NCBI GenBank assembly: GCA_964565685.1
Contig: CAZMFR010000001.1
Coordinates: 36,376 to 100,375 of the forward strand
Direction: 5' to 3'
Length of the DNA: 64,000 bases
Origin: an uncultured Candidatus Saccharibacteria bacterium
GTDB taxonomy: Bacteria; Patescibacteriota; Minisyncoccia; Phycocordibacterales; PALSA-1337
The position numbers and the translations under genes are program-made. Of this stretch, positions 2,336 through 36,521 are shown in pieces. How positions within the stretch are numbered: position 1 is the stretch's first letter; every line of letters begins with the position of its first letter. The notes beneath the pieces are model-generated. The model did not search any database. It saw only the letters and a program-made list of their open reading frames with translations, and was not told the origin of the DNA.

Positions 2336-2845
2336 CTATCTCGTCACCGAAATAATCGCGTCATTGGGCAGTATTTCTCCATCGCCGAAAATAGTTATAT
2401 GACCGCCAGTGTCTTTTGATACAAAATACCCTGTGTGATAACTTGACGTGCTCGTATATGAACCGTTCGTCGGATCATATGGCATTGACGATATATAATC
2501 TGGCACAAGACATGGTCCAAGATCGCCACCGTTGTTATTACCGCTCGAGATATCCGTAGTATTAGGATTAGGGCCATCGATAACATATGCACTGCCATTA
2601 CAGGTGAATACACCCTTGTGCTCGGCAATATTTTGATCGATCGCATCCAATATGGTAGCTACATTGGCTGAACGCTGGGTATCGCGCGCCAAAGCGAATT
2701 GATGGGCAGGATTTACGGCGACTATGACTACAGCCGCCAATATGGCGATGATGCCGATGACCACTAGCAATTCGATCAAGGTAAAGCCGTTGGTAAATGA
2801 CCTATATTGACGCCTACAAACAATGACAAAATGTTTCTCTTTCAT
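2336..2845 (-). CDS. type IV pilin / pseudopilin-like protein (prepilin-type N-terminal cleavage/methylation domain)
   Basis: N-terminus ...GFTLIELLVVIGIIAILAAVV matches the class III signal peptide G/FTLIE followed by a hydrophobic helix. 169 aa. Confidence 0.7.
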   Translation of the reverse strand: MKEKHFVIVCRRQYRSFTNGFTLIELLVVIGIIAILAAVVIVAVNPAHQFALARDTQRSANVATILDAIDQNIAEHKGVFTCNGSAYVIDGPNPNTTDISSGNNNGGDLGPCLVPDYISSMPYDPTNGSYTSTSSYHTGYFVSKDTGGHITIFGDGEILPNDAIISVTR

Positions 2846-3039
2846 ATTGTTTAAATATTAAAGCCGAAAGAATTCCGTAGAATCATAAAATCTCGAGATC
2901 AAAAGGGTGGATCCATGATGTAGAATTTATGATCCAAGAAAAAACGTATCCCGCATTTTTCTTGGATCTTTGATCTTAGATCCTGCCTTTGTATCCTCTG
3001 ACTTTAAAAAACGACGAATCTCCGGCCTTTGCTATTAAT

Positions 3040-3122
3040 GCGATAATTATAGAGAAAGGTTATTAAGAAAAGTTAAAAAAGTTCTAAAGAAAAGTTAAAA
3101 TCATACTAGACCTCGCGAGGTC
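3040..3122 (-). promoter_or_regulatory. Conserved AT-rich promoter-associated repeat, copy 1 (oriented toward the pilin gene at 2845), plus the adjacent palindrome GACCTCGCGAGGTC
   Basis: Read on the minus strand: GATTTTAACTTTTCTTTAGAACTTTTTTAACTTTTCTTAATAA, then 8 nt, then TATAAT (plus coordinates 3046-3051). This is a near-exact reverse complement of the copy at 31380-31422. The 14-bp perfect palindrome lies at 3109-3122. Confidence 0.55.
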
Positions 3123-3123
3123 A

Positions 3124-3762
3124 TTATGAGCTTATCCGCGTCTTTTCACCTTCATCCAAGTTGTGTCCAGTTATAAACCAAGTCTTCGGAGTCTCTATTA
3201 TTTTGCCTTCTTCGTCAACAATAGGCGTTTCCAGCATTTTACGGTTTGATTCGGACAATTCCGCAAATTCTTTTGTGCTTACAAAGCCCTTGAATGTTAT
3301 ATAACGTCCCGCCTTATCCTGAGAGACAGTCTCAAAGTCAACTTTTGGATCGCCCTCAATCTCTGCCAGCTTGTCGCACAATTTCCTGTAAAGAGTTATA
3401 TGATCTATCCTGCCTTCCCCGTAAAGAGCTTCCTTTGTCAGAGCATCTATCAGAACAAAAAATGCCCTCAATGCGCGCTGTTCGACGATATTGATATTGC
3501 TCGATTTTCCGTACAGATATACATGCTCTTCATCAAATGGAACGCCGAAAGACTCACAGACGTCCCTGCGCACGTCCTCGAACTCTTTTATCTCGGCACG
3601 AGCGTCAACCATACGCTTTTCATGGAGCTCTTTGTGAAGAACGGCATTTGGTTCGATAGATCTGACTTGTTTTTCCAAATGGTTTATTATCTTTAAAATC
3701 CCCTCATGATAATGGGTATTTTCATTTACTGGCGCCTGTTCGATTGAGAATTCTTTTGACAT
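3124..3762 (-). CDS. hypothetical protein
   Basis: 212-aa ORF with coding-like composition and no recognisable motif. It lies inside the pilus/ATPase gene cluster. Confidence 0.5.
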   Translation of the reverse strand: MSKEFSIEQAPVNENTHYHEGILKIINHLEKQVRSIEPNAVLHKELHEKRMVDARAEIKEFEDVRRDVCESFGVPFDEEHVYLYGKSSNINIVEQRALRAFFVLIDALTKEALYGEGRIDHITLYRKLCDKLAEIEGDPKVDFETVSQDKAGRYITFKGFVSTKEFAELSESNRKMLETPIVDEEGKIIETPKTWFITGHNLDEGEKTRISS

Positions 3763-3830
3763 GCAACAATCGTATCATATTTCTGCTTTATAGAGAAACA
3801 GGCGGTTTTTGTCCGAGATCCGATCTTGGA

Positions 3831-4055
3831 TTAATGATAATCCATCTTTCCGTTCAAAACCCTGTTCGCTTCCTCTAACGCCTCGTCAGGAGTCATCTCA
3901 TTCTTGTCCATACTCATTAGTATCTCATTGAGCAGGCCGAATTCGCTGTCGTTCGCGCCCATTACGGCCACTCTCTGGCGCACTTCTTCAATGCGCATGC
4001 GCGCTTCGTTTTTGGACATTGATGGTGTTTCAGTTTGATTCAAAAAGCGTTCCAT
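3831..4055 (-). CDS. hypothetical small protein
   Basis: 74-aa acidic ORF immediately downstream of the 924-aa ATPase on the same strand, 3 bp apart. Confidence 0.4.
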   Translation of the reverse strand: MERFLNQTETPSMSKNEARMRIEEVRQRVAVMGANDSEFGLLNEILMSMDKNEMTPDEALEEANRVLNGKMDYH

Positions 4056-4057
4056 AG

Positions 4058-6832
4058 TTATTTCCTATACTTCTCCGCAATCTGCGCCTCGATCTCTGCG
4101 CGATCCTTGCCATAAGTCAGATATGACAGCTCTTTCAGCTTGCCCGCGACATCCGCATCGCCTTTGGGGATATTCGGAACGGCGATGTTGAACGGTTTGA
4201 CGGGAACGCCTTTGGCCAAAAGTTTGACGTAACAGTTGTAATTGTCGATATTCAAAATGTCTTTTTGGGTAAAAGCCGGTTCGAATTGTTTTGCCAGAAA
4301 TTCGGCATCCTCGACTCCGACACGATAGACTGCCATAGAGCCGACATTGCCGAAGACGGCGTTCTTGATCTTTTCATCGAGCTGTTTGATGAATTGATGG
4401 GCGATGTTTAGCGACAGCTTGTATTTGCGCGCTTCGGACAGGATAGTGGCAATAGAATCAGTGGTTATATTCTGGAATTCGTCGATATACAGATAAAATG
4501 GCGGCAGGTTTTTGCCGAGCGAGTCGACGCGCGACAGAGCCGACATCAGGATCTTGCCGACAATGATCAGACCTATAAGATTGGCGTTTATGTCGCCGAG
4601 CCGGCCTTTTGATAGATTGACAAGCAAAATCTTCTTGTTATCCATTATGTCGCGAATATTGAATGTAGATTTTTCCTGTGCGATTACAGGACGCATGATG
4701 TCGTTGGCCAAGAAATTATCGAACTTTGACACGATATATGGAACGATATTAGCCAGAGATGCTTCGCCTCCGGCTTTGTCGGCTACTTCGCGCCAGAATT
4801 GGATTACGAGAGGGTTTTTACAAGTTGCCAGCTTGGACTCGCGGAATTGCTTGTTCGAGAGCACGCGCGAGACGTCGACCAGGGTGTTGTTCGATGACGG
4901 GTCGTCTATGGTAAGGAGGACCGCGTTGCGGAAATATTGTTCGAACATCGGGCCGCCGGCAGTTTTCATGTCGAAGAGCTTGTTAAAGATAGAGAGCATC
5001 TCATTGACCACAAATGTTTTCTGCTCCGGATAGCGCGTATCATATTCGAGCATGTTCAGAGCCATCGGTCGCGCCGTGTACGCCGGGTCGAAATAAATGA
5101 CGTCTTCAAAACGATCTTGTGGGACCAGGGCAAGTATATCTTCGACGTCAGAGCCATGCGGATCGATGAAGCAAAGGCCGTTCCCTTTTTGCATATCCTG
5201 AACGATCATATCCTTTAGCAAAGTCGTCTTGCCTGTGCCTGTCTGTCCGATGACATAAAAATGGCGCAGACGGTCATCGTCAGTCGTATAAACTTTTGTC
5301 TCTCGTCCGCGATCCGTATTGGTGCCGAGAAATGTCCCCATCTGCGGCAAATCCATAGGCGCAGGAGCCGTACCGGATTTCGTCAGCTTGACCTGAGAGG
5401 TCGAAACCTTGCCCGCTACCGGCAAATGCATGACTGTCGTGAGCTCACGCAAAGAAAGCGGGCAATCGCAGCTGTCATCGAATCTGCGATAGGTGAAGTC
5501 GTCTAGTTCTTTTTCCAACTTGCCTCTCGTCACACGAACGAATTCAAAGCAGTTCCCTTGGATATTTTCGAATTGGTTAAAGGAGGCCTCCAGATCAGAC
5601 AGAATGGCATTAGCTTTTGCTTCGCTTTCTGCAGAAGCGATGATACGGATATTTGTCGAGAGCACCGGCGACAAGAGCTTGTTTTGAATCTCCTTCATGC
5701 CGAGCTCGTCTTCAGGCCGATGGCCTTTCTGCGCCTTCTTCTCTTCTTTTTTCTTTTCCTTTTCCTCTTTGCTCGTCGTGACGCTTTCAAGCGCGCTTAC
5801 AAACCCAGAAGCAAAACCCTTTAGCGCTTTGTGTCCAAGAGAATACGCGATATCGATCGCCTCTGACAATTTTTCGCCCTTTTGGATCTTCTCTAATGCC
5901 TTCTTGTATTTTCCGGTATAGAAATCACCGACAGGACTAAAGACGATCTGGATCGACGCGCCTTCGCCATCGCGGTCTATCTTTGAAAAGCTGTTCAGAA
6001 GAGAATTGATCGGATCATGGTCGAACTGCTCGTATGTCTTTATCGGGAAGATATGATTCTTTTTTTGTTTGGCGCGAGACGCTACGGAGGCGCCGTTCTC
6101 ATTGAAGATATTGTAGTCGTTCTTGCATTCGTTCACTTTTGCATCTGGCAATATTGAAAGGATCTGCTTTTCAAATAGATTGCGTTTTTCATCCGGCACT
6201 GCGGCATAGAAAACAAAGTCGTCGCTGTGATTCGCTACTGCTATCTCGAAGACAAATCTGTTTTTACCGTCATCGCCTCCAGCACACATGCCTGCATAGA
6301 ATTGCTCCATCGACGAGAGGATCTCCTTCAACGGCTTTTGGGGATTGTCTTTCTTTTCATTTTCCGGCACCAGTATCTCGAATAGAGACATGTTCAGTTC
6401 CCTCCAAAGCGGGCTCTTCTCCTTTAATCCGCCGATGACAAAACCGGATTTCAGATATTGCACGAGCAGACGATGAAAGTCGGCAGAGATGTGCGGATTG
6501 TCCATTTTATCCACGATTGAAAGGGTGGCGTGTATGCCTTTTGTCTCGAGCATGCCGAGAAGCTCGTTCATCTTTGCATCATGCTGTTCCGGCGCGAGAT
6601 CTAGGACGATGGCCTCCATTTCCTGAGTAGGCACTATATATTTTTCCGCTAGCACTTCGCCCGGCTTTTTCTCGGCATATTTCAACACCTCCTCGCGCGC
6701 AACATGCTCGACAGACGCATCTGGAGTCCTTTCGAGGATCTCTTTCTCCTTTTTCGCGATCATCTCGCGCAGATACGATATCTCCTCTTGCGGATTCTGG
6801 AATTTTTCTGGCTGACCAATTAGATTCTCCAT
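4058..6832 (-). CDS. VirD4/TraG/TrwB-like (type IV secretion coupling-protein-like) P-loop ATPase with a large N-terminal domain
   Basis: C-terminal half carries Walker A (VIGQTGTGKTTLL), a DPHG motif (CFIDPHGSD), Walker B (LYIDEFQNI) and an HQ motif (NIAHQF). This set is characteristic of TraG/TraD/VirD4-type ATPases. HerA/FtsK-like is an alternative. The roughly 450-aa N-terminal domain has no TM segment. A K/E-rich low-complexity linker (EEKEKKKEEKKAQK) separates the two halves. Confidence 0.6.
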   Translation of the reverse strand: MENLIGQPEKFQNPQEEISYLREMIAKKEKEILERTPDASVEHVAREEVLKYAEKKPGEVLAEKYIVPTQEMEAIVLDLAPEQHDAKMNELLGMLETKGIHATLSIVDKMDNPHISADFHRLLVQYLKSGFVIGGLKEKSPLWRELNMSLFEILVPENEKKDNPQKPLKEILSSMEQFYAGMCAGGDDGKNRFVFEIAVANHSDDFVFYAAVPDEKRNLFEKQILSILPDAKVNECKNDYNIFNENGASVASRAKQKKNHIFPIKTYEQFDHDPINSLLNSFSKIDRDGEGASIQIVFSPVGDFYTGKYKKALEKIQKGEKLSEAIDIAYSLGHKALKGFASGFVSALESVTTSKEEKEKKKEEKKAQKGHRPEDELGMKEIQNKLLSPVLSTNIRIIASAESEAKANAILSDLEASFNQFENIQGNCFEFVRVTRGKLEKELDDFTYRRFDDSCDCPLSLRELTTVMHLPVAGKVSTSQVKLTKSGTAPAPMDLPQMGTFLGTNTDRGRETKVYTTDDDRLRHFYVIGQTGTGKTTLLKDMIVQDMQKGNGLCFIDPHGSDVEDILALVPQDRFEDVIYFDPAYTARPMALNMLEYDTRYPEQKTFVVNEMLSIFNKLFDMKTAGGPMFEQYFRNAVLLTIDDPSSNNTLVDVSRVLSNKQFRESKLATCKNPLVIQFWREVADKAGGEASLANIVPYIVSKFDNFLANDIMRPVIAQEKSTFNIRDIMDNKKILLVNLSKGRLGDINANLIGLIIVGKILMSALSRVDSLGKNLPPFYLYIDEFQNITTDSIATILSEARKYKLSLNIAHQFIKQLDEKIKNAVFGNVGSMAVYRVGVEDAEFLAKQFEPAFTQKDILNIDNYNCYVKLLAKGVPVKPFNIAVPNIPKGDADVAGKLKELSYLTYGKDRAEIEAQIAEKYRK

Positions 6833-7062
6833 GAGGATATTATAACAGAAATATTAATAATTATTTCAAGTCGTAAAGGACGGGAGGTGCATCCTTGTCA
6901 TACACGGGTATACATATATACGTTCCTGACGTGACCATGCGAAACACTATCTATTTCATGTGCGATAACAGAAGATTTCAAAGAGGTCCGGCAGTGGATA
7001 TATTTTATCGACATTTTCCTCCTTTAAGTGCGATTCTTTGAAATCTTTTTTGTATTCTTTAT

Positions 7063-7500
7063 TCATAAATTTTCCTCCGTCACCAGATCAATCGACCTGC
7101 CATTATCAATCGCTGTTGCGGAGACATGCTCCGTGACGTCGTCTTCATAACCAGACGCGGAAATAAAGATACTTTGGCCGCTTCGGCCGGCGGAAATGAT
7201 GGTGCAAGAAAAATCCGGCACGCTCTGATTTTTGGCAGCGTAAAAATAATCGTGGGCAAAAGCTAGAATGGCGACCGACACGCAAGATTTTGCGTTCAGA
7301 GTCGCCTGCATCCGATGCTCGCGGCGAGATACTGTGTCTTCGTAGCTTGAAGCCGCGCTAAAAGCGCCGAGGGAACCGAGCAGAATCATGATCATGACAG
7401 ACATGACGAGAAAGACGGCGACAAAGCCGCCAGAAGAAAAGATCGAAATATTATTCGTATCTTTCTTTTTTTCATTTTTAAAAATTATTCTCATACGCAT
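7063..7500 (-). CDS. putative pseudopilin-like membrane protein
   Basis: Hydrophobic N-terminal helix (GGFVAVFLVMSVMIMILLGSLGAF) follows a basic leader. The gene sits in the pilin operon. It overlaps the upstream gene by 23 bp, so the start is uncertain. Confidence 0.4.
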   Translation of the reverse strand: MRMRIIFKNEKKKDTNNISIFSSGGFVAVFLVMSVMIMILLGSLGAFSAASSYEDTVSRREHRMQATLNAKSCVSVAILAFAHDYFYAAKNQSVPDFSCTIISAGRSGQSIFISASGYEDDVTEHVSATAIDNGRSIDLVTEENL

Positions 7501-7687
7501 TTATTACGTCATCGGCAGTCGTTCGATTTTCAATGGCCGATGAATATGACAAAGGGATCAAGACTGTAACGATCATGGAAAAGATAGCCAAATATATTAT
7601 CACTTCGATCAGAGTGAAGCTGGAATGGATATCATCACCTTTTCGGCCAGACACGAAATTTTTCATTTTGATTTTTAATGTTTTCAT
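7478..7687 (-). CDS. prepilin-type N-terminal domain small protein (minor pilin-like)
   Basis: Contains SSFTLIEVIIYLAIFSMIVTVL, a prepilin cleavage/methylation motif with the hydrophobic helix. 69 aa. Confidence 0.55.
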   Translation of the reverse strand: MKTLKIKMKNFVSGRKGDDIHSSFTLIEVIIYLAIFSMIVTVLIPLSYSSAIENRTTADDVINAYENNF

Positions 7688-7693
7688 TTTCTA

Positions 7694-9094
7694 TTATTCG
7701 TGAAAATCTTTGATCGAAGCAATAGATGGACTATCGTTCGACGAGTTGTTGCTAACCACATAGATATCCCCCCAGTCGCATGACATGGCTGCAGGGACTC
7801 CTAGAATGCTATAAGCCGCGCTCGTCGTGCCGAGTCCGTCGTCAGAGCGGAATTGACCGCTTGTCCGATGGGTCAAGACGAGAAAAACTGGAGAACGAGA
7901 AATGACGCCATAGATGCCGCCCGGCTCATCGAACGAACTTCGCTCTGTAATGGCGACGTTTGAAACCATATCCGAAGCGTCATAAAGTATAAATTCTGGA
8001 TTTGCCGTATTGTTATAGCCGCCAGTATCGCGGCCGAGGATTAGCTCCCCTTCGAATAGATCGAGCGTTCGACCGCTTTGCGTTTGCCAACCAGATGGAG
8101 CCAAGGTTTCAAGAAGAACTGAATCTGTTGGATCTGAAACATCAAAGATCATGAGTTGATTGGCGCCAGTGCCGGCAACATATGCCCGCGTGCCATCGAC
8201 GAAGATCTTCTCCACCTTGTTCCCTATTTCATATCTGCCTGCCAATATCGGATGCGCAGGATCCGCCACATTCCAGACGGTAAATTCCGGGCTATCGCCT
8301 TTTTCCGTGCCGAGGTAGACAAAACCTTTGTCATAAAATATCGCCGAACCGTTTGGCGCCGTCGACGAGGCGATATCCATGGGCACTTTTGCCTGTGAAA
8401 TAATCATGGGATGCGAACGATCATGGATATCTATTATTTGGAGCTGGTCGATCGAACCTTTGTTTGACGCAAAAATATAAGGTCCGGCGACAGTCAAAGC
8501 GGCTAGGCCAGGGCCTGTATTCAAAGAAGAAACAAATTTTGGATCTGCCGCATCGTTCATGTCAAAAATGAATAGATCTGGATCGGTGGAACTGCTCGAA
8601 TCTGTCGAGATATAGGCAAAGCCGTCCTTGACCGAAAGGTCAGTGACCGAATTTGAAGGAGAGATCGGAAGAGCGGCGCTCGTCGACGAATAAGTATTAT
8701 TTGAAAAGCTTAAGGTCGGCGGGCACGTATCCTTGCCATAAGCCGAGAACGTATCTGGTTCAAGAATATTAAAAGAAATCGAAGAACTTCCAAACACGCT
8801 CGATGAAGCAGAGGTCGAAAGCACGGAAGATGTTGAAGCAGAAAAAGTAGCGATATCAGCATCGTTTCCGTAATCGGCATGAGCGAATTGCGGATCGAAA
8901 TTTGACAGATCAGCGACCGAGAGCGCGGCTTGATCCAAAAGTGTTTCTTTGTCTCGCGCTTCTTCGAACATCCTCCTCGAACCGAACGAAAGAGCTATGG
9001 TAGAAAAGATGCATATAGAAAACAAGGCGAGCGCGATTATCGCTTCGAGGATGAGAAAGCCCGGACATGAGCTGTTTTTTGTATAATTTTTCAT
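7694..9094 (-). CDS. pilin-like protein with C-terminal LVIVD-type beta-propeller repeats (candidate pilus-tip adhesin)
   Basis: N-terminus ...CPGFLILEAIIALALFSICIF is a prepilin-like motif. Downstream are repeated segments such as GFAYISTD...DPDLFIFDMNDAADP, GFVYLGTEKGD...WNVADPAHP and GTRAYVAGTGANQLMIFDVSDP, which resemble LVIVD repeats. The start is set at the internal Met at 9094; the ORF extends to 9184. Confidence 0.55.
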   Translation of the reverse strand: MKNYTKNSSCPGFLILEAIIALALFSICIFSTIALSFGSRRMFEEARDKETLLDQAALSVADLSNFDPQFAHADYGNDADIATFSASTSSVLSTSASSSVFGSSSISFNILEPDTFSAYGKDTCPPTLSFSNNTYSSTSAALPISPSNSVTDLSVKDGFAYISTDSSSSTDPDLFIFDMNDAADPKFVSSLNTGPGLAALTVAGPYIFASNKGSIDQLQIIDIHDRSHPMIISQAKVPMDIASSTAPNGSAIFYDKGFVYLGTEKGDSPEFTVWNVADPAHPILAGRYEIGNKVEKIFVDGTRAYVAGTGANQLMIFDVSDPTDSVLLETLAPSGWQTQSGRTLDLFEGELILGRDTGGYNNTANPEFILYDASDMVSNVAITERSSFDEPGGIYGVISRSPVFLVLTHRTSGQFRSDDGLGTTSAAYSILGVPAAMSCDWGDIYVVSNNSSNDSPSIASIKDFHE

Positions 9095-9266
9095 ATTTTT
9101 AAAGATATTGTCATTACTACGCATTTTGGCAGATACTATCTTCCTCGGGTACGCGTATCTTGTGCTGAAAATCCGTTCCATCATCGAGCCAAACTCTGCA
9201 GATCCCCATCTGAAGATGTACTTGCCTCCATGTTTAGATTTTCAAGTTCTACTTTTTTCGGCCTCT

Positions 9267-10343
9267 TTATCCTGATAAATGCTGTGAGATCCCGTAAATA
9301 GGCAGAACAATAGATAGAGCCGCGGCGCCGACGATGATCCCGACCGCTATCAATAGAGCTGGCTCGATCAGTTTTAAAAGACCAGCCAAACCAGTCGCGA
9401 GTTCGCTGGCATAATAACGGCTCATTTGCGCTAGGATCGATTCCATATTCCCTGTGCGCTCGCCTATCGCTATGCTATCGACTGCAAGCCCAGGAAAAAG
9501 CCGAGGAGAATTCCTTATGGCAGAAGAAAAATCAGACCCGATCCTCATCTCCTTTACTGCATTGGATAAAGCCCGCTCGTATGGGACAAATCCTATTGAA
9601 GCCGAAGATTCGGCTATGCTATCTATAAAAGGACAGCCAGCAGAGACAAGCGTGGAGACAGTATCGAATATCTCCGATAATATGTGTGTCTGAATGACGC
9701 GCCTCGCGATAGGAATGTACAAGATCAATTGATGGATGAGGTTTTTGAACCACATCGACCCCTTGTAGACAAAAGACAAGACGATGGCGATAGCGAACAA
9801 TCCTAGAAATATCTTCCACCAATCATTCGCCAGAAAATGCGATAGGGAGATAAAAAATATGGTGATCCATGGCAATGGCATGTGCAGACTCTCTATCGTC
9901 GGCATTATCTTTGGTATGATAAAAAAGACAAGAAAGGAGATTATGCCGGCCGAAGCCATAAAGATGATCGCTGGATATGTCATAGCCGATAGAAGGCCGC
10001 TCTTTACGGCACGGCTGCGCTCTATTCTGCCAGCCGCCGCTAGAAGCGATTCGGACAAAGTTCCGCTCCTTTCTCCAATGCGTGCGGCCAGGATCATCAT
10101 GCGAGAAAAGCCGAGCGGACAACCCGAAAGGGCCGACTCGAAGCTCATTCCATTGTTTAGTGAATTTTCGAGCATGGCTAACGAATCACAACGCCGCTTG
10201 CCGAAAGAGCGACGCATGATAGCGATCGATTCTGGTAGAGATAGAGACGCGCCTAGAAGCAGAGACAACCGCTCTGCAAAAATGCCTTGCTCTCTGTGGG
10301 ACAAGGGAGGGTTATTTAGTTTTTTTATAAGTTTTTTAAGCAT
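9267..10343 (-). CDS. pilC: type IV pilus assembly / type II secretion platform protein PilC (GspF family)
   Basis: 358 aa, three TM segments, two T2SS-F-like domains. Positioned directly after the pilB-like ATPase. Confidence 0.8.
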   Translation of the reverse strand: MLKKLIKKLNNPPLSHREQGIFAERLSLLLGASLSLPESIAIMRRSFGKRRCDSLAMLENSLNNGMSFESALSGCPLGFSRMMILAARIGERSGTLSESLLAAAGRIERSRAVKSGLLSAMTYPAIIFMASAGIISFLVFFIIPKIMPTIESLHMPLPWITIFFISLSHFLANDWWKIFLGLFAIAIVLSFVYKGSMWFKNLIHQLILYIPIARRVIQTHILSEIFDTVSTLVSAGCPFIDSIAESSASIGFVPYERALSNAVKEMRIGSDFSSAIRNSPRLFPGLAVDSIAIGERTGNMESILAQMSRYYASELATGLAGLLKLIEPALLIAVGIIVGAAALSIVLPIYGISQHLSG

Positions 10344-10511
10344 AGTTGTTAGAGCATCGAAGTCTGCAAAGTCCTTATCTGAAGAAAAACAAAGATGTTT
10401 TTGGAGATTTAGTTTCCATTTTGAGTGGATTTAAGATCCATGATCTAAGAATTCTTTTTTGCATTTTTCTTGAATTTTGAATCATAGATCTTGAATCTAT
10501 TCTCACGTTCT

Positions 10512-11627
10512 TCACAAATCCAACACTCGCTTTACTTCCTCTATTGTTGTCGCTCCCCACTCGACCTTTTCCGCGGCATGATCGCGCATAGAAACCATGC
10601 CTTTTAGGCGGGCATGCCTGGCTATTTCGACCAATGGCATTCTGGCGGAAATATACGCGCGCAATTCGTCGTCTATCTCGAGAACTTCGGCTATTATAGT
10701 CCGGCCACGATAGCCCTTTTGGAAGCAATATGGACAGCCAAGACCATCGCAGACGTGGCATAGTATTCGTACGAGCCGCTGTGCGATGACAATAGATAGA
10801 GTATGAGCGACAAGATACGGATCGATACCCAGATCGGAAAGCCGCGTCACTGATCCGAGCGCATCATTGGTATGGAGAGTCGAAATGACCAAATGACCAG
10901 TCAAGGCAATATTCGTGGCGATCTCTGCGGTTTCCCTGTCGCGGATCTCTCCGACCATGATCACATCAGGGTCTTGACGCACAAGAGAGCGCAAGCCGTT
11001 TGAAAAATTTATGCCGTGACGATGATCGATCGCGATCTGACGGACACCGTTGATGGCATATTCGATCGGATCCTCGAGAGTGACGATAGATAATGGTTCT
11101 GAAACCAATTGGCGCAACATGGCATACATAGTAGAGGTCTTGCCGCTTCCGGTCGGTCCGGTGACGAGAATGAGCCCCTGATTGCGTGTCAACGCTTCGC
11201 GTATTATGGCTTCATTATCCGGAGAAAAACCGAGCAAAGACAGATCGGCGGTGTTATAGCCGCCGGCCAAAATACGGATAACGGCATTTTCACCGAAATG
11301 AGTCGGGATTATGGATACGCGCATATCAATGGCAGGAGTAGCAGTAGTGATAGGACCTCTGCTGTATGAGAATCGCCCATCCTGAGCCAGCAGATGTATA
11401 TCCGGTCGCAATTTGGCGAGAACTTTTATTCTGGCGATCAATTCCTGATGAAGGGACAGAGGAATAGTCACGCAATGCGTCAAAATACCGTCAATCCTCA
11501 TGCGCACTATCAAACTGCCGTTTTCTGGATCGATATGCACGTCAGAAGCGCCATAAGAAATAGCGTAATCGATGATAGCGTCCAGGGCCTCGGTCGCCTT
11601 TATCCCATGCTGTATGTTTAATTGCAT
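10512..11627 (-). CDS. pilB: type IV pilus assembly ATPase PilB-like (GspE family), short form lacking the N1 domain
   Basis: Walker A VTGPTGSGKTST, Asp box DPDVIMVGEIRD, His box GHLVISTLHTNDA. The tetracysteine motif CHVCDGLGCPYC plus GRTIIAEVL is typical of GspE/PilB rather than PilT. Confidence 0.85.
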   Translation of the reverse strand: MQLNIQHGIKATEALDAIIDYAISYGASDVHIDPENGSLIVRMRIDGILTHCVTIPLSLHQELIARIKVLAKLRPDIHLLAQDGRFSYSRGPITTATPAIDMRVSIIPTHFGENAVIRILAGGYNTADLSLLGFSPDNEAIIREALTRNQGLILVTGPTGSGKTSTMYAMLRQLVSEPLSIVTLEDPIEYAINGVRQIAIDHRHGINFSNGLRSLVRQDPDVIMVGEIRDRETAEIATNIALTGHLVISTLHTNDALGSVTRLSDLGIDPYLVAHTLSIVIAQRLVRILCHVCDGLGCPYCFQKGYRGRTIIAEVLEIDDELRAYISARMPLVEIARHARLKGMVSMRDHAAEKVEWGATTIEEVKRVLDL

Positions 11628-24271: not shown

Positions 24272-27200
24272 TTAGTCGAAGCTTACTTTGGCCAATCCGC
24301 ACCATTCGCAATCTGGATCATCGCATCTGCTTGACACAAGCCCACCGGACCAGACGCTGTCGATGACGCTTTGGATCTGCTCTTTTACTTTTTCTATATC
24401 CTCATGAGCTATCGGCAAGGAAACGATCGGACAGCGGCCTTTTTTATCCGGCGAGATGAAGACGAGCGCAGGCGTGATCTTTTTACCCCTCCAGCGCGGC
24501 TCGTCGTCTAGCAATATGCGATAGAACACGAGCTGACGAAAATAATCGCCGGTTGAATTTTTCGTCTCCCCTTTTATCTCGTTCACCGACATACCCTCGC
24601 GCGTTTTATAGTCAAAAACCTGGATCTCGTTTCCTGCATCGATGATCGCATCTAGCTTGCCGTGGAGCGGAATCTCGACTAGATCGAGGGATACCATCGT
24701 TGTCCGAGGGCTTCCATTTTGTCCAAGGGTAGCCCTTGGAGTTGTATCAAAAACCGTCTTGACCCATCTTTCGGTAAATATGGCCGCCTGCCGGCCGACA
24801 GCAAAATGCGACTCGAGGGCTTTTGCAACAGCCGGCGCGTCCTCGAACAGGTCTTTCTTGACCGATTCTTTTTCCTCCGCGGCAAGAAAAGACGTATCCA
24901 GATATTCCGCCGCTTTTTCCAAGATGACATCTTGGATATGCGATGCGGTCCGATCGCCTTCTTTCCAAATCGAAGAAATCGCATAATGCATGGCCGTGCC
25001 CTTTTCAGCCGCCGGCGAAGGCGCTTGCGGCAGTTTTAGAATGCTCAAATAAAGGAATTTATTCGGACATTCGAGAAAATGGTTCAAGGCCGTGACAGAA
25101 AGGCCGTTTTCAAGGAGAACCTGTTTGGCGATGGCAGTCATCTTGTTCGAGATCGGATCTCGAACTTTGATTTGTCCAAGGTCCGATCTTGGCAATTCCG
25201 CTTCAAACCTCGGCAAAGACGCCGCCGCGACGCTTTTTGGATCGAGCTCGGCGATAAATCGAAGCGGCGTCAGAGATTTGCCGTCGCTTTCCTCTAGAGC
25301 GGTCAGAATGACCGCATGCTTCTTGGCACGAGTCAGGGCGACGTAGAATAATCGCCGCGTATCGCGAATATCGTTGCCGCTCGCGCTCTTTTCTGGCAAA
25401 ACAAAAGATGCGCCTCGTGTCCGGCCGATCCACGCTTCTTCGGTGGCGTACGGCATGAAAACATAGTCGAATTCTAGCCCTTTAGAACCATGAGCCGTCA
25501 TAGCCGAGATCGACAAGTCTGGCGCACCGACGGATACCTTCACTGTCTTTGACTCGGCCGATTGGCGATACACGAGCATTGCCTTTATCAGGTCGAGCGG
25601 GCTCTGTATATTCCCTTCTCGCGCGAGCGATTCGGCAAGAGCAATGATGCCGCGCCACACATGAATAGCCGCCGGATCGCGACTGGCGATAGTAGAGAAT
25701 CCGGATGACTCGGCGGCGTGTATTAGAAAGGCGACAGCGCTGTCTTCTTGCATCTTTCTTTGCAAGCGGACGAGTGACGGAATTTTGTTTATCCAAGGGC
25801 TACCCTTGGACTGATTTTCCAAGGGTAGCCCTTGGAACTGACCGCTTCTCAAAGACTTTATCAGGGGAATCGCTTCGTCGATCGAGATTCCCCACATTCC
25901 AGCCGCAATCGTCTTTGCAAGGCAATCCGTCCGCGTGTAGTCAGCCAGAAACTCCATCAGATCAAAAAATAGCGCCCCGACGGAATGATGGAATATATCG
26001 ACACTTCTCTCCGATGAAACCGGTATATGATTCGATTCGAGGAGCCGGATGATGCGCTCTAGATCGCGATTGCGGCGAGTGATGACGGCGACAGTGGCTG
26101 TTGGCTCCTCTTTTAAGATCGTTTCGAGCCCAACAACTAGATATCTTTCGATAGCCGAGACGTTCTCACCAGTGACTACATCGAGCTTGCGCAGTCCTTC
26201 TCCATCTTTCCTTTTTTCTTCCTGTCTGTCGGCAGGCATGGCTTTGCTTCTCTGCTTGCCTTTATCGCCCGCTGTAAGTCTAACCCTCAAATCCTTGTGC
26301 TCGTCGCCTTCATAATTGTTCTCTATCATGGCAAAGCTGGCATCTAGAATGCCTTGATGCGATCGATAATTCGTATCGAGCGATATGACCTGCATGGTCG
26401 GCCAACGCTTTTGCAAGGTCAAGAAATTTTCGACAGAAGCGCCCTGGAACCGATAGATCGCCTGTTTTTCATCTCCAACAATGAATATGTTCGGTGTTTC
26501 AAAGAATTCAGCGATAGTGGCGACGATGAAATTCTGGGCATCGTTCGTGTCCTGATGCTCGTCCACGAGAAGATATAGAAATCTCTCCTGGATAAGCCGT
26601 AAAAACAGCTCATCGTTGCGCAAGGCGACGAGAAGCTCGATGAGAAGATCATTGAAATCCATCTTCTTCTGCTCGCGCTTGTCCTTTTCATATTTTTCAT
26701 AAATTTGGGAAAAGAGGACGGTGCGGCCGCACTTCTCTATGCGTTCTTGCGCTTCTGCTTTCAGCTTGCCCTTCGTAATGCCGCGCGTCGAGATAGAATC
26801 ATCGTCTTTTTTGATCCTTTCGGTCTCTTTTTCAGCGAATTTGCGCACCATTTCCGGAGTTTGCGCTTCCCTCTTTGCATTATCTATAGCGCGCATAATA
26901 GCAGATATGTATGCATCCGGCTTGCCAGTCGGACGAAGCTCTCTAAATTCCGGCTTGGAGATTATCGAGCGGATCAGAGACTCCTGTTCGACATCGCTCA
27001 TATGCGCCATGCCATCGAGATGCAGGAAGTGATCTGGATACTCGGCGATCATCGCCGCGGCAAAGCTATGAAAAGTATGGATCGCGATCTCGTGCGCGCG
27101 ATTGCCGATTATTTCGCGAAGCTTTGCGCGCATGGCCTTGACACCAGCATCGGTGTACGTAATAGCCAAGATCCCAGACGGTGGCGTATCCGTCCTCTTC

Positions 27201-27349
27201 AAGATATTAGCGATACGCAAAGTCAATATTGTGGTCTTGCCAGTGCCAGGACCGGCTATGACCATTACGGGACCGTCGATGGCGTCGACGGCTTTTTTTT
27301 GCGCCGGATTTAGCGATTTGTATTTCTGGTCAAAAGTTTGCGTATTCAT
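24272..27349 (-). CDS. UvrD/PcrA-type superfamily-1 DNA helicase fused to a C-terminal PD-(D/E)xK (Cas4/AddB-like, Cys-cluster) nuclease domain
   Basis: N-terminus LNPAQKKAVDAIDGPVMVIAGPGTGKTT (Walker A). Helicase motifs run through roughly residue 700. The C-terminus has a QVFDYKT (D-x-K) nuclease motif and a CDDPDCEWCGLAK cysteine cluster. The gene contains at least 5 in-frame copies of the palindromic element. Confidence 0.75.
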   Translation of the reverse strand: MNTQTFDQKYKSLNPAQKKAVDAIDGPVMVIAGPGTGKTTILTLRIANILKRTDTPPSGILAITYTDAGVKAMRAKLREIIGNRAHEIAIHTFHSFAAAMIAEYPDHFLHLDGMAHMSDVEQESLIRSIISKPEFRELRPTGKPDAYISAIMRAIDNAKREAQTPEMVRKFAEKETERIKKDDDSISTRGITKGKLKAEAQERIEKCGRTVLFSQIYEKYEKDKREQKKMDFNDLLIELLVALRNDELFLRLIQERFLYLLVDEHQDTNDAQNFIVATIAEFFETPNIFIVGDEKQAIYRFQGASVENFLTLQKRWPTMQVISLDTNYRSHQGILDASFAMIENNYEGDEHKDLRVRLTAGDKGKQRSKAMPADRQEEKRKDGEGLRKLDVVTGENVSAIERYLVVGLETILKEEPTATVAVITRRNRDLERIIRLLESNHIPVSSERSVDIFHHSVGALFFDLMEFLADYTRTDCLAKTIAAGMWGISIDEAIPLIKSLRSGQFQGLPLENQSKGSPWINKIPSLVRLQRKMQEDSAVAFLIHAAESSGFSTIASRDPAAIHVWRGIIALAESLAREGNIQSPLDLIKAMLVYRQSAESKTVKVSVGAPDLSISAMTAHGSKGLEFDYVFMPYATEEAWIGRTRGASFVLPEKSASGNDIRDTRRLFYVALTRAKKHAVILTALEESDGKSLTPLRFIAELDPKSVAAASLPRFEAELPRSDLGQIKVRDPISNKMTAIAKQVLLENGLSVTALNHFLECPNKFLYLSILKLPQAPSPAAEKGTAMHYAISSIWKEGDRTASHIQDVILEKAAEYLDTSFLAAEEKESVKKDLFEDAPAVAKALESHFAVGRQAAIFTERWVKTVFDTTPRATLGQNGSPRTTMVSLDLVEIPLHGKLDAIIDAGNEIQVFDYKTREGMSVNEIKGETKNSTGDYFRQLVFYRILLDDEPRWRGKKITPALVFISPDKKGRCPIVSLPIAHEDIEKVKEQIQSVIDSVWSGGLVSSRCDDPDCEWCGLAKVSFD
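24720..24741. repeat. palindromic hairpin element inside the helicase CDS: TGTCCAAGGGTAGCCCTTGGAG
   Basis: Encodes TPRATLGQ in frame. An adjacent degenerate copy, GTCCGAGGGCTTCCATT, lies at 24702-24718. Confidence 0.8.
25173..25195. repeat. palindromic element variant inside the helicase CDS: TGTCCAAGGTCCGATCTTGGCAA
   Basis: CCAAG...CTTGG arms. The neighbouring perfect palindrome CGAGATCGGATCTCG lies at 25148-25162. Confidence 0.7.
25791..25839. repeat. two tandem palindromic elements in opposite centre orientation inside the helicase CDS
   Basis: ATCCAAGGGCTACCCTTGGACT, then 4 nt, then TTCCAAGGGTAGCCCTTGGAACT. Translated in frame as FQGLPLENQSKGSPW. Confidence 0.85.
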
Positions 27350-28326: not shown

Positions 28327-28380
28327 AAAGGGTTCTTGGTCAGAACCCTTATACTGTTATTCTATTCTTATTTTATTTTT
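28327..28380. terminator. terminator-like hairpin with T-rich tail between convergent genes
   Basis: AAGGGTTC-TTGGTCA-GAACCCTT followed by an AT-rich run ending TTTTATTTTTT. Confidence 0.5.
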
Positions 28381-29035
28381 TGTGTTTTACAACAATCAGA
28401 GCCAATCCGGCAAGTCCAATAAATGCCGCGACACATGGTTCAGGAGTTGACTCCAAAGAATAACCAACGATGTAAATTTGCGATGAGCTATCCAATGGAG
28501 TTTCCAAGGAAAAAGTCGATTCAAAAGAACTGTTTTGATACTCGAAAATACCTGCCATGCCTCCGAAACTCGCCGATGATGTTCCGGTAACTGGTGATTG
28601 ATAACTTGAACCGATATACCAATTATCAACCGTGGCTATTCCCCCAGACGACTGATGAGGTGAAATTATACCGATTACCAGACCACTGATTGGTGTTAAT
28701 GAGTCAATCATACTGCTTGTAGTTTCCCCGGCCACAGGACCTAATCCATTATTTATAGTGGTAGTAATGGTCACGTCTCCATTTAATTCAGTTAGGGAGA
28801 CTGACGTATCCTGGGCCGCTCCACCATCATAACCCACAAGAGAACTCGGATTCGAAGAGAAACCAACATTCCCCCTCGTATCCACCAATGCAACCCACGC
28901 CGCTTGGTCCAAGTAATTGCTGAACGTCGAGCCGTTGATCGGCGTAAACGTCACCGTTCCTTGCGCCCGCGCCGTCGAGCAAAGCGCAACGATTCCAACA
29001 GCGATCAAACCGATCGCCCATTTTTTCTTTTTCAT
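28373..29035 (-). CDS. secreted protein with N-terminal signal peptide and PEP-CTERM-like C-terminal anchor
   Basis: N-terminus MKKKKWAIGLIAVGIVALCSTARA. C-terminus ...STPEPCVAAFIGLAGLALIVVKHKK has a PEP motif, a TM helix and a basic tail. Confidence 0.45.
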   Translation of the reverse strand: MKKKKWAIGLIAVGIVALCSTARAQGTVTFTPINGSTFSNYLDQAAWVALVDTRGNVGFSSNPSSLVGYDGGAAQDTSVSLTELNGDVTITTTINNGLGPVAGETTSSMIDSLTPISGLVIGIISPHQSSGGIATVDNWYIGSSYQSPVTGTSSASFGGMAGIFEYQNSSFESTFSLETPLDSSSQIYIVGYSLESTPEPCVAAFIGLAGLALIVVKHKK

Positions 29036-35580: not shown

Positions 35581-36521
35581 TACAGATACTTTGTCTCATT
35601 GGTCATCTGCTCGTCATATGTCTCGGCAAAATGTATGTTCCCTTTTGAATCAGACAAATAATACCAATATGTCGTGCTAGCCGGCGAGATTGAGTCCTCT
35701 ATCGCTGAAAGCCCGGGGTTACCGATAGGCGTCGGAGGCAAGCCGAGATTTTTATATGTATTGAATGGCGAAGTGGTCGCCAAGTCGTCAGAAGTCAATT
35801 TTGTACCGTCTTTATCCAGAGCAAAAGCTAGGGCGGCATCCACTTGGAGAGGCATCTTGTCGTCTAGACGCTTCCATAGAATGCCAGCGATGATACGGCG
35901 GTCATTAGAAGAGGTCGCTTCGCGCTCGAGAATCGAGGCCATGATGACGATGGACGATGTGGCACGGCCAGATTCCGAGATCTGATCTTGGACAGAAGAA
36001 ATCTTTTGATCAAAGAGCGTGCGCATAGCTTTCACCGCATCGTCTGGCGAAGTATCCATATTAAAGAAATACGTGTCCGGAAACAGATATCCTTCTGACG
36101 GATCTGCCAAAGTCATAAAAGTCGAAGTGGAAAAACCAGGAATATCTTTGCCGAGCAACGCTGAAATCTGCTGTACATCAAAACCCTCTGGGATGGTCAC
36201 TTTGATCGGGGTAAATCCATATTCTCCATTGACGAGCCGCCGTGCGACCTGTACGACTGATTCCTTCGAATCAAAAAGATAATCCCCTGCCTTGACCCCT
36301 CTCTCGCCTGAAAAAATTATCACAAAAGACTTGAATAGAGCTTCTGATCTTATCATATGATCATTATAGAGATTATCCGTGACTGCGGCGAGCGAAGAGT
36401 TCTGCTCGATGTGAAAAATCGTTCCGACAGGAAAAGTTAAAGAAGGAAACGCGGCAAAACCAAACATGGCAAGTAAAACGACTATGAAAAAAACACCGAT
36501 AGCCGACAGAAACTTTTTCAT
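35580..36521 (-). CDS. mltG: endolytic murein transglycosylase MltG (YceG family)
   Basis: N-terminal TM helix. Motifs IPEG, ASILEREA and GLPPTPIGNPG, plus a YWYYL C-terminal region. Confidence 0.75.
   Translation of the reverse strand: MKKFLSAIGVFFIVVLLAMFGFAAFPSLTFPVGTIFHIEQNSSLAAVTDNLYNDHMIRSEALFKSFVIIFSGERGVKAGDYLFDSKESVVQVARRLVNGEYGFTPIKVTIPEGFDVQQISALLGKDIPGFSTSTFMTLADPSEGYLFPDTYFFNMDTSPDDAVKAMRTLFDQKISSVQDQISESGRATSSIVIMASILEREATSSNDRRIIAGILWKRLDDKMPLQVDAALAFALDKDGTKLTSDDLATTSPFNTYKNLGLPPTPIGNPGLSAIEDSISPASTTYWYYLSDSKGNIHFAETYDEQMTNETKYL

Follow-up and report, generated by a model that had tools for sequence, protein, structure and literature searches.

What is the function of a coupling-protein-like ATPase that lacks a membrane anchor and devotes about half of its length to a soluble N-terminal domain? 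The question is raised by an uninterrupted 924-codon ORF located at positions 4058–6832 of the window (the whole 64-kb stretch of DNA analyzed here). A sequence-only reading had reported this ORF, which the ORF list and translation bear out, without mention of its being on the minus strand. Taken as a whole, what that reading observed was confirmed in part, and its interpretation of a lineage-specific architecture was supported in part. The ORF is not a product of chance, because it has more than 1,100 full-length homologs. Among the 120 matches listed, nearly all are 58–91% identical over 99–100% of the length, and two shorter entries cover 80–82% of it. A sequence identical to the 924-amino acid ATPase is present in NCBI, JGI, and ENA, and a database protein with 100% identity (P0001) is annotated with PF26449 (DUF8128; precomputed match, E ≤ 1e-5) and PF10412. 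Promoter and terminator scans around the gene returned counts equal to the shuffle expectation.

Table 1. Features of the ORF for the 924-amino acid ATPase, in window coordinates.
Feature	Residues	Position (nt)	Strand	Basis
Whole ORF, DUF8128/T4CP-type ATPase	1-924	4058..6832	(-)	924 aa + stop; ORF list, translation
Helical N-terminal extension, fused copy of a small partner protein	1-125	6458..6832	(-)	AF2, HMM
DUF8128 sub-domain a (alpha/beta), VirB4-NTD-like	126-330	5843..6457	(-)	
Variable K/E-rich helical insert within DUF8128	331-372	5717..5842	(-)	composition, pLDDT, identity
DUF8128 sub-domain b (beta-alpha-beta)	373-470	5423..5716	(-)	pLDDT; plasmid-homolog matches (hhalign, HMM)
Flexible connector between N-domain and ATPase	471-499	5336..5422	(-)	pLDDT <50 at 473-485
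NBD, first part	500-603	5024..5335	(-)	RH-x4-GQTGTGKT Walker A, DPHG
All-alpha domain inserted in NBD	604-731	4640..5023	(-)	best-conserved segment
NBD, second part	732-885	4178..4639	(-)	Walker B, arginine finger, sensor Q
Helical C-terminal tail	886-924	4061..4177	(-)	helices 893-907, 911-922 (AF2); 54% mean identity

The N-terminal extension is helical in the AF2 model (pLDDT 41–76) and has a mean identity of 49% across the family, and sub-domain b of DUF8128 is modeled with pLDDT values of 94–98. The K/E-rich stretch that had been described as a linker between the two halves of the protein does exist, at about residues 353–370, with K and E making up 57% of the 30 residues at 353–382. It does not, however, separate the halves. 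The stretch is instead a poorly conserved insert between the two DUF8128 sub-domains (pLDDT <50 at 332–371, mean identity only 25%), and the border between the N-domain and the ATPase is located at residues ~471–499. Hydropathy analysis (Kyte-Doolittle, 19-residue windows) revealed no TM helix anywhere in the protein, in line with the sequence-only reading, which had noted this for the N-terminal ~450 amino acids in contrasting the protein with canonical, membrane-anchored coupling proteins. The mean peaks at 1.84 at residue 748, within the ATPase core, and never exceeds 1.3 in the N-terminal half.

The ATPase half is T4CP-like (VirD4/TrwB-type), as judged from sequence profiles. The motifs previously listed for the C-terminal half are all located there: Walker A (GQTGTGKT, 529–536, nt 5225–5248), DPHG (557–560), DEF (784–786) within the Walker B sequence YLYIDEF (D784/E785, nt 4475–4483), and AHQ (811–813), which contains the sensor Q813 (nt 4394–4396). 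An arginine finger, R802, is encoded at nt 4427–4429. K535, D784, E785, R802, and Q813 show no variation across 71 homologs. In the HMMER alignment, the Walker A/DPHG region is paired with 'RHLLVNGATGTGKS...DPNG' of TrwB, and the Walker B, R375, and Q386 of TrwB align opposite the Walker B, R802, and Q813 of the ATPase, respectively. The Pfam models TrwB_AAD_bind (24.7 bits, cut-off 20.5; residues 523–564) and TraG-D_C (24.2 bits, cut-off 22; residues 778–837) both match. Over residues 511–832, NCBIfam models rank SXT_TraD (47.6 bits) and CD1115 VirD4-like (40.7 bits) above VirB4 (24.4 bits), with the T4CP equivalog models all scoring far under their cut-offs. Searches of the PDB by sequence and by profile matched TrwB and DotL only, and the NBD carries an inserted all-alpha domain, as in VirD4-type T4CPs. 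Neither the organization nor the family models of HerA (HAS-barrel) or FtsK (alpha/beta/gamma) were matched. The proposal of a coupling-protein-like ATPase is thus upheld by these profiles, and also by the cataloging of a close ortholog as a T4CP: in Table S3 of a 2025 survey (PMC12102498), the 60%-identical KKR53198.1 is listed as T4CP/t4cp1 at 86% coverage, with 'VirB4 proximity: No.'

The N-terminal half had been described as a domain of unknown function free of recognizable motifs; the latter view is now outdated by the Pfam entry PF26449 (DUF8128) on the identical protein. Structure prediction had been suggested as one means of examining this half, and DUF8128 (residues 126–470) has a fold like that of the N-terminal domain of VirB4. 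The protein thus combines a VirB4-type fold at its N-terminus with a RecA-like domain C-terminal to it. A link between DUF8128 and VirB4 N-terminal domains at the sequence level was considered and dropped. The Pfam VirB4-NTD families gave nothing relevant against ten diverse N-domains at E ≤ 10, hhalign comparison of DUF8128 with the N-terminal regions of a pair of plasmid-encoded VirB4-like proteins yielded probabilities of ≤0.2%, and the PDB profile search returned no VirB4. A search of the accessible literature library for PF26449/DUF8128 found no paper.

Within its lineage, the ultra-small CPR bacteria of the class Paceibacteria, the architecture is the norm and not, as had been supposed, atypical. 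For the ~920-amino acid family, which is conserved over its full length, at least 591 loci were confirmed among species-representative genomes; all taxon-bearing titles among these name Patescibacteria groups, with the Paceibacteria being the class in which the family is standard. These PF26449 ATPases of Paceibacteria, which NCBI names 'TraM recognition domain-containing protein,' have a DUF8128 domain followed by a P-loop NBD, and the protein studied here resembles them over its full length. The family is inherited vertically, with identities of 58–91% across the class for the full-length matches listed. Its commonest context is Map-ATPase-Ndk at the end of the ribosomal-protein/SecY operon: Map is upstream in 38 of 67 loci, Ndk is downstream in 42 of 72, and the two flank the gene together in 33 of 62. 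The ATPases of this family are core chromosomal genes rather than remnants of mobile elements.

A sister subfamily carries one N-terminal TM helix. An HMM of residues 1–128 matches only members of the soluble form and ORFs of 116–188 amino acids that lie directly upstream of these TM-forms (E 1e-19 to 1e-2, full-length coverage). Residues 1–125 are thus the fused counterpart of a small protein for which the TM-anchored subfamily has a separate upstream gene. One TM-form, in another lineage, is located ~2 kb from a pilus cluster. The suggestion of a lineage-specific architecture holds for the TM-less variant that bears the N-terminal fusion, which looks specific to Paceibacteria; it does not hold for the DUF8128 and NBD core, which is found on plasmids and in a phage family as well (phrog_5156 matches residues 188–920, E 8.7e-83).

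Conjugative plasmids of Bacillus, actinomycetes, and haloarchaea encode DUF87/'T4SS DNA transfer' ATPases that match the NBD (110–247 bits) and also the DUF8128-like N-domain (hhalign 94–99%). In Embleya, Bacillus, and Halalkalicoccus plasmids, the homologs that share the N-domain adjoin VirB4-like ATPases and a relaxase-like gene. In the conjugation clusters of monoderms and archaea, the place of the coupling protein is thus taken by distant homologs of the same architecture. Unlike the 924-amino acid ATPase, to which they are only 20–26% identical, they are borne on mobile elements, inside transfer clusters, and have no fused N-extension. The Bacillus homolog, a 913-amino acid TM-less protein on a Tcp-like plasmid, is not the T4CP of pLS20, in which gene 48 encodes 786 amino acids with two TM helices. 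TM-less T4CPs are a recognized class (PMC7431656), and soluble ATPases in the T4CP position likewise make up the TM-less and archaeal classes of Llosa & Alkorta, one example being TraJ of pIP501, which TraI recruits. Compared with VirD4-type T4CPs (TrwB of R388, DotL/IcmO, TraD/TraG; CONJScan t4cp1), the ATPase has no TM domain and ~470 extra N-terminal residues, composed of the fused partner and the VirB4-NTD-like DUF8128; its all-alpha domain is its best-conserved part; and its gene is not accompanied by a relaxase or by T4SS (Dtr/Mpf) transfer genes but belongs to the chromosomal core and sits in housekeeping operons. The sequence-only reading had named a full-length match to a characterized family as grounds for abandoning it, and it survives on this point because no characterized family matches the protein over its full length.

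In the window, the gene is embedded on the same strand in the order PilB-PilC-pilin-like-pilin-TM protein-ATPase-74 aa-212 aa-pilin, which would be expected of a dedicated component of a type IV pilus or competence-pilus machine. Such a role would have precedents in PAPI-1 and the archaeal Ced system, in which VirB4/T4CP pairs work with T4P (PMC12857230, PMC12102498), and the TM-form near a pilus cluster elsewhere would fit it. We rejected membership in a pilus operon because tblastn with the window's neighbors located PilB or PilC within 8 kb of the gene at just 1 of 80 orthologous loci and the nesting is already gone in a relative at 91% identity. It is likewise absent in relatives at 76%, 75%, and 69% identity and in 56 TM-form loci, and no conserved co-occurrence with PilB, PilC, or pilins was found. 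The pilus cluster around the ATPase is thus private to this lineage, and a pilus function, largely refuted by synteny, is highly improbable. The 74- and 212-amino acid ORFs downstream were dropped as conserved partners, having no homologs in the relatives' loci and no family matches. Smaller still is the chance that we assign to a conventional conjugative coupling protein carried by an integrated mobile element, or to a part of an anti-phage defense system (MADS mad8-, DptH-, or HerA-like). PADLOC does report mad8, DndH, and HerA, but these matches are confined to the generic ATPase core, and partner genes are absent. The window holds housekeeping genes only, with no relaxase, VirB4, T4SS, integrase, or defense partner, and its GC content is even; we rejected a mobile element on these grounds. 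The ~160 related loci (80 + 80) have no such genes either, relaxase and T4SS genes included, and vertical inheritance across the class also speaks against this origin.

The two remaining alternatives concern the identity of the motor itself. That the protein is the organism's genuine VirB4 in a divergent form, VirB4 being the signature ATPase of T4SS assembly, is very unlikely. In contrast to VirB4 (TrwK of R388, PDB 7o42/8rtd; the Thermoanaerobacter CTD, PDB 4ag5), it has no VirB4 signal at the sequence level: the models TIGR00929, CagE_TrbE_VirB, TraC_F_IV, and CONJScan virb4 do not recognize it, TIGR00929 scoring 24.4 bits where its cut-off is 643. Its P-loop context (RH...GxTGTGKT...DPxG) and its larger all-alpha insert are T4CP traits, and its plasmid-cluster homologs co-occur with a distinct VirB4-like ATPase. 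Patescibacteria moreover possess a canonical VirB4 of their own. An HMM screen found a separate, monophyletic VirB4 in ~80% of them, usually beside TrsD and VirB3 (PMC12102498), and family loci are not clustered with VirB3, TrsD, VirB6, or VirB8; in genome GCA_000996205.1, ~200 genes separate VirB3 and TrsD from the ATPase ortholog. Among the rows of Table S3 covered here, those that pair a T4CP with a VirB4 all belong to other genomes (PMC12102498). The main alternative is a T4SS-independent translocation role, in which the protein is a T4CP by descent only and serves as an FtsK/HerA-like ring motor for chromosome handling, repair, or nucleic-acid import, the last meaning host or environmental DNA or RNA taken up for nucleotide salvage. 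We give this role a minor chance. The neighbors Adk, Ndk, and DnaX are generic housekeeping genes, and their adjacency may mean only co-expression; no conserved nuclease or channel partner occurs near the family loci; and the sequence profiles favor T4CPs over HerA or FtsK.

The fold, motifs, fusion, distribution, and synteny demonstrated here are best explained by a vertically inherited, chromosomal ('domesticated') ATPase of the VirD4/T4CP branch of the FtsK-HerA-VirB4 superfamily that is typical of Paceibacteria, an explanation that we think probable. The protein consists of four modules: the fused helical partner, DUF8128 with its K/E insert, a TrwB-like RecA-type NBD in which Walker A and B, the arginine finger, and the sensor glutamine are all intact, and the unusually conserved all-alpha domain inserted therein. 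The protein is expected to assemble into a ring, probably a hexamer, with ATP sites at the subunit interfaces. The conserved all-alpha face may bind one fixed, lineage-wide substrate or adaptor. The VirB4 N-domain reportedly binds the tails of VirB3 and VirB8 in R388 structures. In the domesticated T4CP, the VirB4-like N-domain might replace the TM anchor by docking the ring on a membrane complex, for which the likeliest partner would be the MPF-FATA-type T4SS of Patescibacteria, whose genes lie elsewhere in the genome.

The family and its Pfam entry DUF8128 were already known, as was an ortholog cataloged as a T4CP. New here are the T4CP-like ATPase half with invariant R802 and Q813, the fused partner, the placing of the K/E insert, the housekeeping contexts, the lineage-private nature of the pilus cluster, and the distant conjugation homologs of the same architecture. 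The 2025 survey counted 5,713 T4CP homologs in 2,918 Patescibacteria genomes, only 148 of them near virB4, so that each genome has roughly two orphan 'T4CP' genes; its authors left exaptation possible (PMC12102498). These orphans now gain an anatomy and core-gene status in a ribosomal-protein/SecY operon. A coupling-type engine with a VirB4-type N-domain bears on the divergence of VirB4 and VirD4 as well as on the route by which coupling proteins devoid of a TM helix get to the membrane. Two features offer handles on function, namely the fusion/fission pair and the invariant face of the all-alpha domain, the practical value being that of generating hypotheses.

Patescibacteria (CPR bacteria) make up a large share of bacterial diversity, and how they acquire building blocks from their hosts is a standing question. 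A more speculative idea, which we regard as rather improbable, is that DUF8128 ATPases are a deep-branching VirB4/VirD4 intermediate, joining a VirB4-type N-domain to a VirD4-type engine, and act as a constitutively expressed core translocation motor of Paceibacteria free of conjugation. The N-domain and fused adaptor would then dock onto a membrane channel, for example for the import of host-derived nucleic acids or the export of effectors. If true, CPR bacteria would possess a new housekeeping machine, one that is also a living link in how T4SS ATPases evolved.

The ATPase gene at 4058–6832 is a single uninterrupted ORF of 924 codons on the minus strand (ORF list and translation). Its limits are those given by the sequence-only reading, and the plus-strand translation of this interval contains stop codons throughout. 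Across 5.8 billion proteins searched, the window protein has more than 1,100 significant matches. The best 120 are nearly all full length (~910–970 aa; 58–91% identity), and one entry, already in NCBI, JGI, and ENA, is 100% identical. With such matches, there is no doubt that this is a real gene. Pfam PF26449 (DUF8128) is annotated on the identical database protein, so the N-terminal half, where the earlier reading had seen no recognisable motif, does belong to a recognisable family. The ATPase motifs it had named (GxTGTGKT, DPHG, DEF, and AHQ) are all found in the C-terminal half. It had also rightly called the protein free of TM helices; a 19-residue Kyte-Doolittle scan found no TM segment, the top mean (1.84, residue 748) lying within the ATPase core.

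The domain layout was derived from per-segment conservation and two AlphaFold2 models, one of the full-length protein (mean pLDDT 73.8, pTM 0.53) and one of residues 125–475 built with a more diverse alignment (pLDDT 86.8, pTM 0.85). A K/E-rich stretch previously taken as the linker between two halves exists (at about 353–370), but it is an insert within DUF8128 rather than a border. The most conserved segment is the all-alpha domain, which exceeds even the catalytic core (71 homologues). Descriptions of T4CPs usually treat this domain as variable and substrate-binding.

Segments of the window protein (residues), features of the window (nucleotides), and features of related loci (nucleotides of the named locus or accession)
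Feature	Location	Strand	Mean identity	Remark
Helical N-extension	residues 1–125		49%	modest confidence
Alpha/beta sub-domain a	residues 126–330		63%	
K/E-rich helical insert	residues 331–372		25%	pLDDT below 50
Sub-domain b	residues 373–470		50%	pLDDT 94–98
Flexible connector	residues 471–499			
NBD (nucleotide-binding, RecA-like), first part	residues 500–603		74%	
Walker A (GQTGTGKT)	residues 529–536			
DPHG	residues 557–560			
All-helical insert (all-alpha domain)	residues 604–731; 4640–5023		84%	
NBD, second part	residues 732–885		81%	
DEF of Walker B (YLYIDEF)	residues 784–786			
AHQ	residues 811–813			
Helical tail	residues 886–924			
Compact type IV pilus/competence-pilus-like cluster	2336–11627	minus		
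PilB-like ATPase	10512–11627	minus		only 371 aa
PilC	9267–10343	minus		
Pilin-like protein with LVIVD repeats	7694–9184	minus		496 aa
Short pilins	7478–7687; 2336–2845	minus		
TM protein	7063–7500	minus		145 aa
Orphan ORFs, mid-cluster with the ATPase	3831–4055; 3124–3762	minus		74 aa; 212 aa
UvrD-helicase/PD-(D/E)XK nuclease fusion, AddA-like	24272–27349	minus		1,025 aa
ORFs without Pfam match (E ≤ 1e-5)	36518–38005; 39436–40857; 28373–29035; 43737–44444			495, 473, 220, 235 aa
Small ORFs upstream of TM-form ATPases, examples within L095–L174	L107 1525–1962; L097 9619–9969; L103 247–642			
RmuC gene (DNA recombination)	L082 12456–13460; L081 4707–5711			overlaps ATPase 3' end
Protein with faint T4SS_pilin (PF18895) match	L085 12558–14579			673 aa
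TM-type DUF8128 paralogues	L156 8460–10931; 13372–16059			823, 895 aa
gp156 of jumbo phage G	JN638751.1 90946–93063			

Structure prediction of the N-terminal half, a check proposed earlier, yielded a fold resembling the VirB4 N-terminal domain. A Foldseek search of all PDB chains with the N-domain gave 13 matches at E ≤ 5e-4 and probability 1.00. All are TrwK chains from five R388 entries, some of them lacking the Hcp1 fusion and one a partial chain of 457 residues. The next match had an E of 4.6e-3. As the query has no P-loop and no isolated RecA-type ATPase domain (4ag5, TrwB, HerA) was among its structural matches, the match must, on the predicted model, be to the VirB4 N-terminal domain. 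The likeness to VirB4/TrwK is one of fold and was not found in sequence: for ten diverse N-domains, Pfam at E ≤ 10 gave nothing relevant and no tie to VirB4, and with hhalign the N-regions of two VirB4-like proteins from plasmids matched DUF8128 at a probability of no more than 0.2%.

K535, D784, E785, R802, and Q813 are invariant among 71 homologues. In the HMMER alignment, D784-E785, R802, and Q813 lie opposite the DEL Walker B, arginine finger (R375), and glutamine Q386 of TrwB. Because its catalytic residues are invariant and aligned with those of TrwB, the protein looks like an active, ring-forming ATPase. Its Pfam matches, TrwB_AAD_bind and TraG-D_C, each narrowly pass the gathering cut-off. 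In NCBIfam, SXT_TraD ranks first (47.6 bits), followed by the CD1115 VirD4-like family (40.7 bits over 511–832); these and the VirB4 score (24.4 bits) are all far under equivalog cut-offs. Single-sequence and profile searches of the PDB were both headed by TrwB and DotL, with no others at E 0.001 in the profile search and VirB4 absent from both. These matches bear out the earlier assignment to coupling-protein-like ATPases, and the ATPase half is T4CP-like by sequence. Taken with the TrwK matches, they show a protein that joins a VirD4-type engine to an N-domain whose predicted fold is of VirB4 type.

An exhaustive HMMER search of 1.84 billion representatives matched residues 1–480 in 1,044 clusters, whose taxon-named members are all Paceibacterota or Minisyncoccia. 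A sister subfamily (TM-form, ~780–870 aa) lacks the first ~125 residues and has one TM helix running straight into DUF8128. Among 80 metagenomic loci retrieved with this subfamily, 56 contain a total of 57 TM-type members, and a small ORF (116–188 aa, no Pfam match) abuts or overlaps the ATPase start in nearly all of those whose upstream sequence is long enough. Among the 1,162 ORFs of these loci, an HMM of the N-extension matched only soluble-form members, like the window protein, and these small ORFs (E 1e-19 to 1e-2, full profile length). The window protein is therefore a Rosetta-stone fusion that unites the partner with the ATPase and has lost the TM helix, implying that the small partner would bind the ATPase in the split version.

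In a published survey of 3,035 Patescibacteria genomes, a monophyletic VirB4 occurred in about 80%, usually adjoining TrsD and VirB3, and 2,918 genomes held 5,713 VirD4-type T4CP homologues, only 148 of them near virB4; the survey also notes a non-essential T4CP in Ca. Southlakia, and its authors state that T4CP exaptation 'cannot be ruled out' (PMC12102498). Table S3 of the survey lists the database protein KKR53198.1 (P0060) as a T4CP (profile t4cp1, 86% coverage, VirB4 proximity 'No'), and its genome carries another t4cp1 gene and, at a distance, VirB3 and TrsD as a pair (PMC12102498). KKR53198.1 is 60% identical to the window protein over its full length, and the family has thus already been counted as 'T4CP'. 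Paralogy is common in these ATPases, given the two t4cp1 genes of that genome and two TM-type copies, 2.4 kb apart, on one contig (L156). Two loci of the soluble type (L011 and L026) occur in one Nomurabacteria MAG, CALRBL01. A literature search found no published description of the DUF8128-ATPase N-domain, fusion, or synteny.

More distant homologues (identity ≤34%) were found by tblastn in 313 plasmid records, from Streptomyces, Bacillus, Staphylococcus, haloarchaea, and Sulfolobus. Three of these were looked at closely. The homologue of a linear Embleya plasmid (812 aa) comes after a PrgI-family gene and a VirB4-like ATPase, and after it come a replication-relaxation gene and an NlpC/P60 hydrolase; a B. 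subtilis plasmid of 65 kb has a 913-aa 'DUF87' protein upstream of TcpC-, TcpD-, and TcpE-like genes; and a Halalkalicoccus plasmid encodes a homologue of 1,247 aa just after a 'transfer complex protein'. All three homologues lack TM helices. The Paceibacteria DUF8128 profile matched their N-regions with 79, 37, and 30 bits, respectively (hhalign 98.9%, 97.1%, and 94.2% over 232–284 columns), and did not match the VirB4-like neighbours. The PHROGs family phrog_5156 (function unassigned) matches residues 188–920, nearly the whole architecture (E 8.7e-83), and tblastn matches to phage G gp156 and a few other Bacillus/Brevibacillus phage records reach into the N-domain. These plasmid homologues, with their N-domains, transfer-gene neighbours, and lack of TM helices, and the phage homologues mark the DUF8128-NBD core as an old ATPase without TM helices that occupies the coupling position in transfer systems of monoderms and archaea and shares ancestry with conjugative ATPases. 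Two recognised classes, 'T4CPs without TMD' and 'archaeal T4CPs', accommodate such a core (PMC7431656). The Paceibacteria version is domesticated and chromosomal.

The window is ordinary chromosome, with genes for sigma-70, DnaG, GroEL, RNase J, HisRS, BipA, RF, MnmA, and an AddA-like helicase-nuclease; no AddB-like partner of the latter was found among the ORFs scanned. Four ORFs without a Pfam match stand amid housekeeping genes. A mobile-element gene was rejected, since the 64 kb have an even GC content and lack relaxase, integrase, and VirB4 genes. The ATPase gene shares its strand with the type IV pilus cluster that surrounds it (order PilB, PilC, LVIVD pilin-like protein, pilin, TM protein, ATPase, 74-aa ORF, 212-aa ORF, pilin); the ORFs scanned around this cluster include no prepilin peptidase. 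Only the window's own lineage has this nesting: relatives at 91%, 76%, 75%, and 69% identity have different housekeeping contexts, and of 80 orthologous loci just one has PilB or PilC within 8 kb. A pilus component was therefore rejected. Specific tests, among them the low score against the VirB4 model, likewise contradict a canonical VirB4, and others contradict a defence gene.

Unbiased clustering of neighbours in 80 genome loci gave as commonest order ...S8-L6-L18-S5-L15-SecY-Adk-Map, ATPase, Ndk, small TM protein, MBL/beta-CASP hydrolase. Ndk is directly downstream in 42/72 loci and Map upstream in 38/67, with both flanking in 33/62; the gene behaves as a vertically inherited core gene. 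The TM-form has housekeeping neighbours only (GtrA-like, DnaX, PMT_2 glycosyltransferase, SerRS, LysRS, FtsQ, and, in one lineage, RmuC), and no recurring T4SS gene adjoins either form in the loci examined. In the RmuC-bearing lineage, the opposite strand carries a pilus cluster some 2 kb beyond. The sole hint of a T4SS component adjoining any family member is the 673-aa protein of L085, directly downstream of a TM-form ATPase. The operon position of the gene favours the main rival, a T4SS-independent nucleic-acid translocase, as does the non-essential T4CP in Saccharimonadia; we nevertheless consider this rival unlikely. The most economical partner is an MPF-FATA-type T4SS encoded elsewhere in these genomes. 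The window protein would form a ring motor whose highly conserved all-alpha face may bind a constant substrate or adaptor. The N-domain, placed where the sister form has its membrane anchor, would dock the ring onto a membrane complex; in the R388 structure papers, the VirB4 N-terminal domain reportedly contacts the VirB3 and VirB8 tails.

Far from the atypical ATPase first supposed, the window protein is a standard Paceibacteria core protein, catalogued in databases and functionally uncharacterised. The family was already known as PF26449 and counted as 'T4CP'; this analysis adds that DUF8128 is predicted to resemble the VirB4 N-terminal domain in structure, that the partner is fused to the ATPase, that the 'linker' lies elsewhere than first placed, and how often particular neighbours flank the gene.
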